NCBI GenBank assembly: GCA_964558795.1
Contig: CAZLFJ010000001.1
Span: 6,175-64,103 of the forward strand
Reading direction: 5' to 3'
Origin: Candidatus Woesearchaeota archaeon
Lineage (GTDB): Archaea > Nanobdellota > Nanobdellia > Pacearchaeales > GW2011-AR1
Length of the DNA stretch: 57,929 nucleotides
Both the position numbers and the translations under genes were made by a program. Under the pieces are notes generated by a model that saw only the letters and a program-made list of their open reading frames with translations, was not told the DNA's origin and searched no databases. How positions within the stretch are numbered: the first letter of the stretch is position 1; every line of letters begins with the position of its first letter. Below are positions 22,891 through 31,020 of the stretch, piece by piece.

Positions 22891-23631
22891 ATGGATAAAA
22901 AACCTACTAGGGAGGTAATAAATTTAGCCTCTAAGATTCTTGAAAAAACACCCTATGAAACGCAAAAAGAGATCATAAAGAAGATATTTAACAGGACTGA
23001 AGATACTAAGGAAGATATTATTTTGAGGCTAATGGTTATTGATAGTGGATATTCGACAAACCTTAACAGAAGACTTTTTGGGTTTGAAGAGATTTCTAAA
23101 TTTTTAGTTGAAATAACTCCTCATATTGAATTGCTTTTATATGAAAAGATAAATGACTTGGATTTTTTCAAAAAACTTGAAAAAGATTTAGTAAAAGGAT
23201 ATGGAATAAGTAAAATTGGAAAAGAAGGAGGGCATGCTTTTTCTCTAATTAGTAAATATATCTATTTTAGAAGTAATTTTAAGTTCCCAATATATGACTC
23301 ATTAGTAAGAAAAGGCTTAGCAAAGTTAGGAAAAATTGGAAGGTATGAAAATCACCCCTCTCTAAAATATTTTGAAGAACTGAAGAAATTAAGGGAGGAG
23401 CTTAAATGCACTATTGATGATCTTGATAAATATTTCTGGATTCTTGGAAAGATAGGGGATGTAAAACAAATAAGCCCGTCCCTCTTAATTAGTAATAAAG
23501 AAATATATCGGGAAGATTTCTTGAAAGGCATGAAAGGAAAAAAAGATTTAGAAACATTTAAAATAGCAAAATTCAGTAATCCAAAATTAAGATTAATGCA
23601 AGAATTTTCTAGGAAGGTTAATAATGACTAA
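22891..23631 (+). CDS. 246-aa helical protein of unknown function (cistron 10)
   Basis: Conserved-looking blocks VIDSGYSTNL, AFSLISKYIYFRSNFKFPIYDS and LDKYFWILGK. 8-nt overlap with the helicase gene. Confidence 0.5.
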   Translation: MDKKPTREVINLASKILEKTPYETQKEIIKKIFNRTEDTKEDIILRLMVIDSGYSTNLNRRLFGFEEISKFLVEITPHIELLLYEKINDLDFFKKLEKDLVKGYGISKIGKEGGHAFSLISKYIYFRSNFKFPIYDSLVRKGLAKLGKIGRYENHPSLKYFEELKKLREELKCTIDDLDKYFWILGKIGDVKQISPSLLISNKEIYREDFLKGMKGKKDLETFKIAKFSNPKLRLMQEFSRKVNND

Positions 23632-27286: not shown

Positions 27287-27658
27287 ATGGCAAAAGACAC
27301 TGAAACAAAGCTTCATGAACTGAAACAGAAAATCAAAGGATTCTGTGATGCTAGAGACTGGGATCAATTCCACAACGCAAAAGAACTTGCAATTGCTCTT
27401 TCTATAGAGGCCTCAGAGCTTTTAGAGATCTTCAGATGGAAATCACCTCAAGAAGTAGATGAATTATTCAAAAACGAAAAGAAGAAAGAAGATATAGAAG
27501 ATGAAATGGCCGACGTTCTTTATTTCCTAGTTAGGATTGCTCAGTTATATGATTTAGATTTAACAGAGGCTTTAGAAAGGAAGATGGATAAAAACGACAA
27601 GAAATATCCCGTAGATAAGGCAAGAGGTTCAAATAAAAAATACAACGAGTTTGAATAA
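27287..27658 (+). CDS. MazG-like nucleoside-triphosphate pyrophosphohydrolase (DCTPP1-like)
   Basis: FCDARDWDQFHNAKELAIALSIEASELLEIFRW...EDEMADVLYFLVRIAQLYDLDL...KMDKNDKKYP. This is the all-alpha NTP-PPase E-x-x-E...E-x-x-D pattern. Confidence 0.75.
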   Translation: MAKDTETKLHELKQKIKGFCDARDWDQFHNAKELAIALSIEASELLEIFRWKSPQEVDELFKNEKKKEDIEDEMADVLYFLVRIAQLYDLDLTEALERKMDKNDKKYPVDKARGSNKKYNEFE

Positions 27659-29325
27659 TGAAAGAATTACAAATAAAAGAATTTCTATTTGGGGAAGAAA
27701 CTCCAGAAATTCTAAGTTTTAGTACTGAAAATGGAAAAATAAATTGGTCTGGAAACTGGCCCGTAGTATATATTCTATTAAATGAAGATGAAGCCTATAT
27801 TGGAGAGACATATAAAGTAAAAGAGAGACTAAAACAGCATTATGGAAATCCCGAAAGAAAATTGCTTAAAAAAGTATTTATTCTAATAGATGAAGAATCT
27901 AACAAATCCTACACTCTAGATCTTGAGGCATTTTTAATAAGATATATGTCTGCTGACGGGGTTTTTAAACTTCAGAATAGTAATAAGGGTCTAATAAATT
28001 ATGAATACTTTGGTAGGGAATCCTATAAAAAGAGATTTGAAAAAACAATTTGGCCGAAATTAAAAGAACTGCAACTTGCAAAAAGAGATTTGTTCTTAAT
28101 TCAAAACGATGATTTATTTAAATATAGTCCCTATACTCCCCTGGCATCTACACAACATGAAATTGTTACTAAAATCTTAAATGATCTTATAAATACATTC
28201 AATAGAAAGGTCTCTATAGTTGTTCGAGGAGGTCCAGGAACTGGAAAAACAGGTATTGGATCCTATTTGGTAAAGCTATTGACTTCTAAAGATGAAAGTT
28301 TTGAAGATGAAGAAACAAAACTTGAGCTGAGTAAAGTACAAAACAAAATTAGAAAAATAGGTTTTGTTATTCCCCAACAATCCTTGCGAAAAACTCTTAA
28401 AAGAGTCTTTAAAAAAATTAAAGGACTACATCCTGGGATGGTTTTGAGTCCAAATGATGTTGTCAAAGAGAAGTTTGATTTATTGATTGTTGATGAAGCA
28501 CACCGTTTAAGAAGAAGAAAAAACCTATCTACCTACAAACAATTTGATGATAATAACAGAAAACTTGGTTTGCCTAGAGATGCAACCGAATTAGATTGGA
28601 TATTGTTAAATAGTAAGAACAGAATATTTTTCTACGACCCGGAGCAAACTATTAAACCAACAGATATAGAAAATAAATACTTTTTGGACAGGATAAGCGG
28701 AGATTTATTTTTTGAACACAAATTAACTTCTCAATTTAGAGTAAAGGGTGGTGAGGACTATATAACCTATATAAAAGAAATACTTAACTCCCGATTAGAA
28801 AAAAAGAAGGAATTTGAAGAATACGACTTTAAGATTTTTGAAAATTTTTCAGAAATGAGGTTGGAAATAATAAAAAGAGATAAAGAGTTCCAACTGGCAA
28901 GAATTGTAGCAGGTTATGGTTGGAAATGGAAATCTAAAGGAGATAAAAATATTCCAGATATAGAAATTGAAGATGAAAAAATGGTATGGAATACTGAAAT
29001 TGTAGATTGGGTTAATAGCAAGAGATCCCTGGAGGAGGTTGGGTGTATTCACACAATACAAGGATATGACTTAAATTATGCAGGAGTAATATTTGGACCA
29101 GAGATTATATATGACCCTGAAGAGAAAAAAATAAAGATAATAAAAAATAATTATCATGATTTTAATGGAAAGAGAAGCATCAATTCTGAAGAGGAACTTG
29201 AAGAATATGTAAAAAATATTTATGGGGTCTTGCTCACTAGGGGGATGAAAGGAACATATGTTTATGCAGTTGATAAAAATCTTAGAGAATACCTAAAGAG
29301 GTTCATAAACTTGTTCAATCACTAA
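27658..29325 (+). CDS. GIY-YIG nuclease fused to a DUF2075/Schlafen-type SF1 ATPase
   Basis: N-terminus VVYILLNEDEAYIGETYKVKERLKQH (GIY-YIG). Then GGPGTGKT, LLIVDEAHRL, LTSQFRVKGGEDYITYI, ARIVAGYGWKW, GCIHTIQGYDLNYAGVIFG and VLLTRGMKGTYVY (DUF2075 blocks). TAATG overlap with the MazG gene. Confidence 0.75.
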   Translation: MKELQIKEFLFGEETPEILSFSTENGKINWSGNWPVVYILLNEDEAYIGETYKVKERLKQHYGNPERKLLKKVFILIDEESNKSYTLDLEAFLIRYMSADGVFKLQNSNKGLINYEYFGRESYKKRFEKTIWPKLKELQLAKRDLFLIQNDDLFKYSPYTPLASTQHEIVTKILNDLINTFNRKVSIVVRGGPGTGKTGIGSYLVKLLTSKDESFEDEETKLELSKVQNKIRKIGFVIPQQSLRKTLKRVFKKIKGLHPGMVLSPNDVVKEKFDLLIVDEAHRLRRRKNLSTYKQFDDNNRKLGLPRDATELDWILLNSKNRIFFYDPEQTIKPTDIENKYFLDRISGDLFFEHKLTSQFRVKGGEDYITYIKEILNSRLEKKKEFEEYDFKIFENFSEMRLEIIKRDKEFQLARIVAGYGWKWKSKGDKNIPDIEIEDEKMVWNTEIVDWVNSKRSLEEVGCIHTIQGYDLNYAGVIFGPEIIYDPEEKKIKIIKNNYHDFNGKRSINSEEELEEYVKNIYGVLLTRGMKGTYVYAVDKNLREYLKRFINLFNH

Positions 29326-29347: not shown

Positions 29348-29365
29348 CTCCTTCTTTCGAAGGAG
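29348..29365 (+). terminator. Hairpin CTCCTT-ctttcg-AAGGAG after the DUF2075 gene
   Basis: Read directly. There is no long T-run, so the terminator role is uncertain. Confidence 0.25.
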
Positions 29366-29406: not shown

Positions 29407-29538
29407 TCTACTCTCAATCTGCTCTTTCAAAACATAAATATTACAAAATTATAAAATTGAAAGCCAAATTGCTCTACTCGCAATCTGCTCTTTCAAAACA
29501 CGAATATTACAAAATTATAAAATTGAAAGCCAAATTGC
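29407..29538. repeat. Two abutting 66-bp direct repeats (63/66 identical) plus a degenerate start of a third
   Basis: Copy 1 (29407-29472): tctactctcaatctgctctttcaaaacataaatattacaaaattataaaattgaaagccaaattgc. Copy 2 (29473-29538) differs at 3 positions. Each unit holds an internal GCTCTTTCAA...TTGAAAGC inverted repeat. Confidence 0.85.
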
Positions 29539-29824
29539 TCGGACTCGCCCTCATATTATCTATTTCGTACTAAAAGTTAAGTATTTAGTAACTTTATATA
29601 CAAAATAGAAAACTTTTCCCAGCCCCCTCGGGCTGAGCAAAGAGGCTTTCAAGAAATAATTTTACAAATTAGCGAAAGAGCTCTTTGCGAAAAGAGAGTC
29701 ACAACACAACGAAGTTGTGCTAAAATATCCCCTCTTCTAAAGGAGGTTAGAGAGTTGAAATTATTCCTTCCTACTAACAGCCACCAAACGATTCCAAAAT
29801 CAAAGAAACCAAAACACTTATAAA

Positions 29825-29867: not shown

Positions 29868-30518
29868 ATGACAAAAATAAAAAGAAAACAAAGACATGGA
29901 TTTGGCTCGATAGTTGGAGAAGAAAGGCTAACGATACTAGAAGGAACAATAATTGCCTCATTTTTTCCCGAAGCGGAAGAAACAACCATAAAAGAAATCC
30001 AAGATAGAACAGATTATTCTTACGAAAGAATAAACTCTGCTTTAAAATCACTAGCTAAAAAAGATATAGCGACTGAAAAACAAATAGGGAAAACATTGGT
30101 TTATTCCTTAGATTTGCATAATCTATACTCAAAAATAGGATTTAGCAACTACATGCTCGAAAGGGAAATAGAATTTATCAAAAAACATAAACTAATATTT
30201 AAATCAATTGAAGAAATATCAAAAGACATTTTTGGGATAATCATTCTATTTGGAAGTTATTCAAAAGGAAATGAAAAAAATAGTTCAGATATTGATTTAA
30301 TGGTTGTTTCGGAAAACAAACAGCTTGCAGAAGAAAAAATAAATGAGATAAAAATAAAAAGGGGATACGAAATTTCACTTGCCTTTATCAAAACTCTCGA
30401 GTTTCCTAAAATAAAGAAAGAAAATCCTGAGCTTTGGGCAGATTTAAAGCAATATGCAATTGTTTTTAATGGCGAAGATTCGTATTATTACTGGATGTAT
30501 CAAGATGCAAACAATTGA
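29868..30518 (+). CDS. wHTH-fused minimal nucleotidyltransferase (MNT, antitoxin-type)
   Basis: N-terminal wHTH-like TTIKEIQDRTDYSYERINSALKSLAKKDI. NTase core IILFGSYSKGNEKNSSDIDLMVV (GS-x-D-x-D). Confidence 0.65.
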   Translation: MTKIKRKQRHGFGSIVGEERLTILEGTIIASFFPEAEETTIKEIQDRTDYSYERINSALKSLAKKDIATEKQIGKTLVYSLDLHNLYSKIGFSNYMLEREIEFIKKHKLIFKSIEEISKDIFGIIILFGSYSKGNEKNSSDIDLMVVSENKQLAEEKINEIKIKRGYEISLAFIKTLEFPKIKKENPELWADLKQYAIVFNGEDSYYYWMYQDANN

Positions 30519-31020
30519 CTTTTACATAAGCAAAGGGCAACTGGTAAAAGATGACACAATCAAATCAAAGGCAAAAAGCTATTTGAACAAAGCAAGACAT
30601 AATTTAGAAATTTTAGATGCCCTAGATAAACTAAACATAAATAAACAAGCAAAAGAGATTTTAAAGATTTCACAAGATTTCGATTCTAGCGAATGGGTTG
30701 TTATTTCTGGATATTATGCGATGTATACTGCATCCCTGGCGCTTCTTGCAAAGGTGGGTTTTAGAAGTAAAAACCATACAGCAACATTACTCGTTTTAGA
30801 GGAATATTTTGTGAAAAAGAAACTTTTAGATCAGACTTCTTATTTAAAATTAAAAAATGCTTCATTCCAAAAAGAAGAGCTAGAGAAAATTTCAGAAGCA
30901 AGACATCAAAGAGAAATCGCCCAATATAGTATAACAAAACAAACAACAAAAGACATTGCACAAAAAATTAAAAAAGATACCTATGAATTCATAAACAAAG
31001 TAGAGTTAATATTAGAATAG
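30505..31020 (+). CDS. HEPN-domain protein (partner of the MNT)
   Basis: Start at MQTIDFYISK (14-nt overlap with the MNT gene). All-helical, with YYAMYTASLALL and SEARHQREIAQYS (PF05168-like R...Y block). Confidence 0.55.
   Translation: MQTIDFYISKGQLVKDDTIKSKAKSYLNKARHNLEILDALDKLNINKQAKEILKISQDFDSSEWVVISGYYAMYTASLALLAKVGFRSKNHTATLLVLEEYFVKKKLLDQTSYLKLKNASFQKEELEKISEARHQREIAQYSITKQTTKDIAQKIKKDTYEFINKVELILE

Follow-up and report, generated by a model that had tools for sequence, protein, structure and literature searches.

Here we describe two adjacent genes in a 57,929-nucleotide (nt) stretch of DNA, hereafter called the window, from Candidatus Woesearchaeota archaeon (assembly GCA_964558795.1, contig CAZLFJ010000001.1, positions 6,175-64,103, forward strand). 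Gene 1 encodes a MazG-like nucleoside triphosphate (NTP) pyrophosphatase, and gene 2 encodes a protein in which a GIY-YIG nuclease is followed by a DUF2075 helicase of the Schlafen type. The pair is a conserved, mobile two-gene operon of catalytically intact enzymes; it is tightly coupled and co-inherited across bacterial phyla and DPANN archaea, and in an evolutionary sense the nuclease-helicase depends on MazG. By analogy with known systems, we propose that the pair is a self-contained, horizontally mobile immune module that targets the DNA of viruses or other foreign DNA, with MazG removing deoxycytidine triphosphate (dCTP) or modified dCTP, a proposal to which we give an even chance of being right.

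To examine the conservation of the pairing, we scanned one genome per GTDB species. The scan with the single nuclease-helicase protein as query returned no relatives; an alignment of the helicase was used as query instead, and the best 80 of at least 459 relatives were taken (individual loci are labeled L followed by a number). The hosts of these 80 loci comprise many lineages of the Candidate Phyla Radiation (CPR/Patescibacteria), Bacillota, Bacteroidota, Gammaproteobacteria, Bdellovibrionales, and a Woesearchaeota metagenome-assembled genome. A first-pass annotation of the window, made from the sequence alone, had made the case for the pair depend on its adjacency being conserved beyond the source genome, and this is indeed so in both bacteria and archaea: a tblastn search with the MazG of the window found a MazG gene in 78 of the 80 helicase loci. 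As for the other two, L042 is a probable exception, since its 231 nt of upstream sequence hold no MazG remnant, and in L046 the upstream sequence is limited to 63 nt, too short to judge the presence of MazG. In 72 of the 78 loci MazG is located directly upstream, in the same orientation, with mostly -4 to +5 nt from its stop to the start of the DUF2075 gene (72 loci; starts taken from the longest open reading frames, ORFs); elsewhere it lies just downstream (three loci) or is divergent (one locus), and a second copy is present in one locus. No third conserved gene was found in the 80 loci, the commonest neighbor cluster after the two core families occurring in nine of them. The protein distance matrices of MazG and the helicase are correlated (r=0.55, Mantel p=0.001), as would be the case for genes that move as a unit. 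Archaeal relatives retain the pair as well, namely L172 (75% identity), L173 (59%), where it sits among genes for Rpb7, Spt4, and ribosomal proteins, and L167 (Woesearchaeota); copies that are 33% identical occur on megaplasmids of the Bacillus cereus group, where RefSeq lists a 'nucleotide pyrophosphohydrolase' followed by a 'DUF2075 domain-containing protein'.

On one of these plasmids, pIS56-233 of Bacillus thuringiensis (L082/L171; NC_020394.1, 104617-110239), the pair (WP_080546736.1 and WP_000947885.1) has as neighbors genes for an HNH endonuclease, a zeta toxin, and another (d)NTP pyrophosphohydrolase; an ImmA/IrrE-HTH pair and a prophage-like lysis cassette lie close by.

In the window, the two ORFs (123 and 555 amino acids, aa; Table 1) lie where the first-pass annotation had placed them, and the TAATG overlap it described could be read directly: the stop codon TAA occupies 27656-27658 and the start codon ATG 27658-27660, with base 27658 common to both. 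The protein encoded by gene 1 matches PF12643 (MazG-like; 6.7e-17, 62 bits against a cutoff of 27) and PF03819 (MazG; 5.8e-06) in Pfam, and its nearest solved structures are an archaeal pyrophosphatase (4qgp, 4.3e-22) and mouse/human DCTPP1 (6sqw and 2a3q, 2e-20); the earlier assignment to the MazG/DCTPP1 type was right. The alignment with these proteins runs from end to end and includes the C-terminal KYP...G...KY (YP..RGS..KY) tail. Across 40 MazG partners of DUF2075 genes, W25, F28, H29, E41, E44, E47, E73, D76, K99, Y107, and K118 are invariant, and conservation reaches at least 90% at P108, G114, and Y119; the E-x-x-E...E-x-x-D pattern noticed earlier corresponds to E41-A-S-E44 and E73-M-A-D76, and is thus among the invariant positions of these orthologs. 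Because the metal-binding and catalytic residues are invariant and the DCTPP1 alignment is complete, gene 1 is predicted to encode an active enzyme of the dCTP-pyrophosphatase type. With DCTPP1/RS21-C6 and 4QGP it shares four metal-binding acidic residues, the W/H/W/Y pocket, and the C-terminal tail; DCTPP1, however, is a stand-alone house-cleaning enzyme, whereas gene 1 is translationally coupled to a nuclease-helicase. DCTPP1 prefers 5-modified dCTP, and dCTP or 5-modified dCTP is, by analogy, a plausible substrate of this MazG; it is likewise plausible that the enzyme depletes or sanitizes modified deoxynucleoside triphosphates (dNTPs).

The protein encoded by gene 2 was also correctly recognized as a fusion of GIY-YIG with a full DUF2075 domain. 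PF09848 (SLFN-g3_helicase, formerly DUF2075) matches at 2.6e-69 over practically the whole profile (positions 2-354 of 354), and PF01541 (GIY-YIG) matches at 3.4e-05, with 24.5 bits against a cutoff of 22.6. The nuclease strings that the first-pass annotation quoted, VVYILLNEDEAYIGET and RLKQH, are found at residues 36-51 and 57-61, respectively. In an alignment of 30 homologs, the GIY-YIG catalytic set (Y38, Y47, G49, R57, H61, E90, and N107) is invariant, as are the helicase residues G191, G194, G196, K197, D279, E280, H282, and R283 and, further along, Q359, R361, Q468, G469, R528, and G529. More than 6,900 homologs of the nuclease-helicase were found at E<=1e-10. A profile search of PDB sequences with the helicase returned only a weak match to RecG (1e-4), so a structure search was needed. 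The AlphaFold2 model of the 555-aa protein has a mean predicted local distance difference test score (pLDDT) of 89.5 and a predicted template modeling score (pTM) of 0.86, and the top Foldseek matches of its helicase are the SLFN11 helicase domain (best), coronavirus nsp13, Dna2, Upf1, and RecD/RecD2, which are superfamily 1B (SF1B) helicases. The likeness to SLFN11 is confined to this domain: the N-terminal nuclease of SLFN11 is a tRNA nuclease, not a GIY-YIG enzyme, and identity is only about 10%. Pfam gave no match to NERD in the 555-aa protein, and no modified-base reader domain could be recognized in it.

The family contains a longer form. Among 84 family proteins of the genome set, 34 have 655-740 aa and carry a C-terminal Peptidase_S24 domain similar to that of LexA and UmuD. 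When aligned with LexA and UmuD, at least 90% of these members show the serine of G-[DE]-S-M and the lysine of T-x-K, and where LexA and UmuD are cleaved (at Ala-Gly and Cys-Gly, respectively) an [A/C]-G dipeptide is found. Judging from this Ser/Lys dyad and cleavage site, the domain looks like a working self-cleaving switch. In LexA and UmuD, self-cleavage is a response to RecA bound to single-stranded DNA. Unlike these members, the window protein has no S24 domain, and the domain is also absent from the other archaeal copies and from Firmicute copies. The sequence upstream of MazG was also searched, in 76 loci, for SOS boxes of the Gram-positive and E. coli types. The Gram-positive box (GAAC-N4-GTTC) was found in 0/76 and the E. 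coli-type box (CTG-N10-CAG) in 1/76, at or below background; therefore, control by LexA of those two types is not supported.

Comparison with known defense systems indicates that no model of PADLOC-DB v2.0.0 covers the pair, in line with the earlier expectation. In this database, MazG has no match at E<=10, and the nuclease-helicase has only partial matches, to PDC-S41 (1.8e-10, C-terminal region), AbiO, and PDC-S14 (GIY-YIG part). The Nhi model of PADLOC (PDLC02372) does not match the window helicase at E<=10, and relatives of this helicase match it in part of the helicase core with 33-57 bits. The two-gene combination, which the first-pass annotation believed to be undescribed, was likewise absent from the open-access papers and preprints searched, none of which links DUF2075 to MazG, to a pyrophosphohydrolase, or to PF12643. 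That DUF2075 NTPases adjoin DUF3427 enzymes, and that DUF2075 occurs fused to GIY-YIG, has already been noted (PMC6765204).

The closest functional precedent is Nhi of Staphylococcus epidermidis (SERP2475), a single anti-phage gene encoding a PD-(D/E)XK nuclease joined to DUF2075, whose nuclease and helicase activities are both needed for immunity and which limits the accumulation of phage DNA; one Nhi homolog was toxic on expression (10.1101/776245). Gene 2 resembles Nhi in combining an N-terminal nuclease and a DUF2075 SF1B helicase in a single polypeptide. The nucleases differ, however, that of gene 2 being GIY-YIG; Nhi has a C-terminal glyoxalase-like domain, whereas the GIY-YIG-DUF2075 family has an optional S24 domain; and Nhi acts as one gene with no reported MazG partner. 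That the MazG partner is obligate argues against a single-gene system of the Nhi kind. Nhi-like proteins, with an N-terminal domain predicted to be a nuclease, plus DUF2075, have been validated as anti-phage (Millman et al. 2022, 10.1101/2022.05.11.491447), and their nuclease is NERD (PF08378; PMC10952713). They share the nuclease-DUF2075 order with gene 2 but are described as stand-alone, whereas gene 2 carries GIY-YIG and is accompanied by MazG. The pair would thus depart from the known Nhi kind of defense in the nuclease that is joined to DUF2075 and in having a pyrophosphatase as an obligate partner.

More distant parallels exist as well. In Gabija, GajB is reported to hydrolyze (d)A/(d)GTP while acting jointly with the nuclease GajA (10.1101/2023.05.02.539174). 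Gabija and the nucleotide-depletion defenses (dCTP deaminase and dGTPase) resemble the pair in that a nucleotide-consuming enzyme is combined with, or works alongside, an attack on DNA; but their proteins are non-homologous, gene 1 has no sensor or regulatory domain, and depletion by it is hypothetical. Type IV restriction (McrBC, McrA, and DUF3427 enzymes) is linked to the pair in two ways: MazG proteins of the same clade head McrB-McrC and McrA-like HNH operons, and a PLD-helicase-DUF3427 enzyme with a NUDIX partner of its own is found beside the pair in six loci. It differs from gene 2, in which no modified-base reader is recognizable.

In a reverse test, the MazG alignment served as query against metagenomes, and the 80 closest relatives (39-67% identity) were retained; 63 of these loci had at least 900 nt of downstream sequence or one of the partners counted here. 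MazG stands beside a GIY-YIG-type DUF2075 gene in 8/63 loci, a second DUF2075 family (620-650 aa) in 18/63, an MraW methyltransferase in 4/63, and a McrB-like AAA_5 or HNH protein with a common N-terminal domain in 3/63, while 30/63 loci have none of these partners. Only about 40% of close MazG relatives therefore have a DUF2075 neighbor of either family. The linkage thus shows an asymmetry: the helicase is nearly always accompanied by MazG, but MazG is often alone. The MazG clade consists of common house-cleaning enzymes, and systems built on a nuclease or NTPase have recruited MazG from it several times. This asymmetry, the S24 fusions, and the presence of the MazG clade in McrBC and HNH operons go beyond what the first-pass annotation had noticed.

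Several features of these relatives deserve separate mention. The MazG most similar to that of the window (67% identity, L083) pairs with the second DUF2075 family, which is tightly coupled to MazG at L083:712-2577, L088:4361-6229, and 16 further metagenome loci. In this family, an N-terminal region of about 260 aa has no Pfam assignment, apart from one sub-threshold NERD match in one member (19.9 bits against a cutoff of 22.1), and there is a partial match to the PADLOC candidate PDC-S41. MazG relatives with 43-47% identity form the first gene of a McrB-like (AAA_5)-McrC operon and precede a McrA-like HNH gene (L111:1798-5527; L112; L157:75-1372). The gene after the McrB-like gene was identified as McrC (PF10117, 1.2e-29), the MazG-linked HNH protein is closest to McrA-type enzymes, and the N-terminal domain common to the MazG-linked McrB-like and HNH proteins is unassigned. 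Stand-alone MazG relatives (L100, L105, L109, L160, and the partnerless loci) often adjoin rRNA methyltransferases, including MraW/RsmH, RlmKL-type (UPF0020+THUMP), and RlmJ, and these neighbors hint at a house-cleaning role of MazG for methylated nucleotides.

The immediate neighbors of the pair are very diverse, with 137 Pfam families in 145 proteins from the 80 loci. The most frequent are Fic, NERD, further DUF2075 (SLFN-g3_helicase), ResIII, RhuM, and NYN, then DUF3427, AbiEii, PemK, and PLD; genes that combine NERD with DUF2075, as in Nhi-like proteins, directly adjoin the MazG-DUF2075 pair in 3/80 loci. Seven contexts were annotated with Pfam, of which two are clear defense islands and one lies by an integrase and an ORF6N gene. 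In the first island (L169), type I-C CRISPR-Cas is located on one side of the pair and PLD-helicase-DUF3427 plus NUDIX on the other; in the second (L165), the order is PvuRts1I/SRA, DarT-NADAR, the pair, NUDIX, PLD-helicase-DUF3427, and QueC. The window pair itself is flanked by a PDC-S13 candidate, a UvrD plus PD-(D/E)XK protein, and an MNT/HEPN pair. The module is nearly absent from viral collections, with one distant match in IMG/VR (29% identity) and four weak or unannotated matches among 50,697 phage records; this is what a host-side function would lead one to expect, and a phage origin of the module was rejected on these grounds.

The NUDIX gene and the gene for PLD nuclease, SF2 helicase, and DUF3427 (about 910-960 aa) stand beside the pair in L169:11730-15018, L165:11696-14916, L017, L055, L063, and L067, and constitute a second combination of a pyrophosphatase with a nuclease-helicase.

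In the immune module proposed here, the SF1B helicase would load on the DNA of an invader during replication, where it is single-stranded or branched, and bring the GIY-YIG nuclease to nick or cut the invader DNA, as Nhi and Nhi-like proteins do. The substrate that the DCTPP1-type MazG hydrolyzes to the monophosphate would be dCTP or, with greater likelihood, its 5-substituted form. Such an activity might starve invaders that build modified DNA; alternatively, it might keep modified nucleotides freed from degraded DNA out of the host chromosome, which would spare the host as a target. In about 40% of bacterial members, the S24 domain probably holds the enzyme in an inactive state, from which it is released by self-cleavage in response to single-stranded DNA coated with RecA, a switch that the archaeal copy in the window lacks. 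The link to modified cytosine is suggested by the DCTPP1-type active site, by MazG relatives heading McrBC and McrA-like operons, and by modification-dependent nucleases as recurrent neighbors. A fuller version of this proposal, which we put forward tentatively and with less than even confidence, is that MazG acts less as a plain depletion effector than as a safeguard against modified nucleotides in host or invader DNA and thereby lets the nuclease-helicase tell self from non-self; the pair would then be a new immune system of bacteria and DPANN archaea, armed through RecA by S24 in many bacteria, with NUDIX plus PLD-helicase-DUF3427 and MazG-McrBC as parallel versions.

We infer the immune role from the architecture common with Nhi and Nhi-like proteins, the patchy distribution across domains, and the mixed neighborhoods. 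The first-pass annotation had called the genes a candidate defense pair: the domains and the conserved adjacency hold, PADLOC-DB v2 has no model for the pair, and the evidence for the defense role as such is indirect. Several observations weigh against an immune module. The median pairwise identity is high (about 47% across phyla) and the module occurs in small CPR genomes as well, both of which suit a conserved cellular function equally; the S24 domain suits a response to DNA damage equally well; and a MazG without regulatory domain would be an odd nucleotide-depleting effector. Defense genes are recognizable in none of four of the seven Pfam-annotated contexts, and the neighbors in the 30 partnerless MazG loci are mostly housekeeping genes (RlmKL-type and RlmJ methyltransferases, RRF, and purine-synthesis genes). 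Furthermore, no MazG fused to DUF2075 was found among the best 150 of 6,511 MazG cluster representatives (the longest having 368 aa), nor was such a fusion found among the top 120 helicase homologs.

The main rival, rather unlikely in our estimate, is a module for DNA damage or replication stress, in which MazG would rid the pool of damaged or modified dNTPs, the GIY-YIG helicase would act on lesions or on forks that have stalled, and the S24 variants would be switched on by RecA filaments in the manner of UmuD and LexA. Such a role fits the complete LexA/UmuD-like S24 domain in 34 of 84 members, the housekeeping character of the MazG clade elsewhere, by rRNA methyltransferases and RRF, and the high conservation across phyla together with the occurrence in reduced CPR genomes. 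SLFN11, the best Foldseek match of the helicase model, acts at stressed replication forks, and several contexts are free of any defense genes. A repair function, however, sits poorly with the patchy distribution across the boundary between bacteria and archaea and the variable neighborhoods, with Bacillus megaplasmid copies beside a zeta toxin and an HNH gene, and with the copies in clear defense islands; nor do the 76 upstream regions show a Gram-positive or E. coli-type SOS box above background, and archaeal and Firmicute copies are devoid of S24.

Less probable still is a toxin-antidote unit serving addiction or abortive infection. Here the nuclease-helicase would be toxic and MazG would neutralize it, either by removing an activating nucleotide or by binding, and the pair would be retained because a cell that loses MazG dies. 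The asymmetric linkage fits this arrangement, as does the position of MazG as the first, translationally coupled gene of the operon; the toxicity of one Nhi homolog and the frequent toxin-antitoxin neighbors (Fic, PemK, AbiEii, PIN, and zeta) also agree with it, and mazG of E. coli belongs to the mazEFG operon. But the same type of MazG precedes McrBC-like genes rather than classical toxins, and its catalytic residues are all invariant, which indicates that enzyme activity, and not just a binding surface, is under selection. Finally, a housekeeping MazG might merely be co-transcribed with an unrelated DUF2075 gene, given that MazG relatives of similar identity stand alone in housekeeping contexts. 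Such a meaningless adjacency is close to refuted and receives hardly any credence from us, since the pair is kept in 78/80 loci from many phyla and two domains while all other neighbors change, the coupling distances are conserved, and the trees of both proteins correlate.

Should the pair prove to be an immune module, GIY-YIG would be a third nuclease type in the Nhi-like class of nuclease-DUF2075 defenses, an NTP pyrophosphatase would be seen to be able to serve as a required partner of such enzymes, and the system would be among the few of its kind common to CPR bacteria, ordinary bacteria, and DPANN archaea. The combination of a pyrophosphatase with a nuclease-helicase recurs in MazG-DUF2075, MazG-McrBC/HNH, and NUDIX-PLD-helicase-DUF3427, a pattern that suggests a general rule whereby enzymes attacking modified or replicating DNA need a sanitizer of the nucleotide pool. 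In addition, the S24-fused variants offer a route to understanding how single-stranded DNA switches on a Schlafen-type helicase, which bears on how human SLFN11 senses replication stress.

The window is a low-G+C chromosome segment that encodes MCM, GatD, aminoacyl-tRNA synthetases, and DnaK/DnaJ, and it is archaeal in view of MCM and GatD. Its G+C content is even (about 32%), so composition gives no hint of recent acquisition, and no tRNA genes or Rfam RNAs were found in it. The features around the pair are listed in Table 1.

Table 1. Features of the MazG/nuclease-helicase pair and of the surrounding gene run (window coordinates)
Feature	Position	Strand	Basis or remark
ORF, 246 aa, without known family	22891-23631	+	overlaps the UvrD + PD-(D/E)XK gene by 8 nt
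UvrD-helicase + PD-(D/E)XK nuclease protein, 887 aa	23624-26287	+	Pfam; PADLOC matches GajB-like and DRT-helicase-like at 1e-38 to 1e-43
Bro-N protein, 294 aa	26378-27262	+	PADLOC candidate PDC-S13 at 1e-123; 24 nt upstream of MazG
MazG-like all-alpha NTP pyrophosphatase, DCTPP1/RS21-C6 type, 123 aa (gene 1)	27287-27658	+	PF12643, PDB matches
TAATG stop/start overlap	27656-27660	+	read from sequence
GIY-YIG nuclease-DUF2075/Schlafen group-3 SF1B helicase, 555 aa, without S24 (gene 2)	27658-29325	+	Pfam
GIY-YIG nuclease domain, about aa 34-110	27757-27987	+	PF01541 over aa 36-94
DUF2075 helicase core, aa 185-539	28210-29274	+	PF09848 over aa 185-539
Walker A GGPGTGKT, aa 191-198	28228-28251	+	helicase core
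Walker B DEAH, aa 279-282	28492-28503	+	helicase core
Hairpin CTCCTTC-TTTC-GAAGGAG, then T-rich stretch	29348-29365	+	23 nt past the helicase stop; read from sequence
MNT-type nucleotidyltransferase ORF	29868-30518	+	Pfam; after a 540-nt spacer
HEPN ORF	30454-31020	+	Pfam; 65-nt overlap with the MNT ORF

The pair closes a run of genes on the same strand, which comprises the 246-aa ORF, the UvrD plus PD-(D/E)XK and Bro-N genes, MazG, and the helicase; the hairpin after the helicase is a possible end of the transcript of the pair. The 246-aa ORF and the 887-aa gene may represent a second nuclease-helicase module of the same run. Relatives of the Bro-N/PDC-S13 protein occur near the MazG-DUF2075 pair in only 2/80 loci (L020 and L066). 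Just downstream of the pair, a 66-nt direct repeat is present in two tandem copies that are 95% identical (29407-29538), and 18 nt of each copy are 83% complementary to 29635-29652, within the spacer that precedes the MNT and HEPN genes. The overlap of these two genes is the usual layout of an MNT/HEPN toxin-antitoxin pair.

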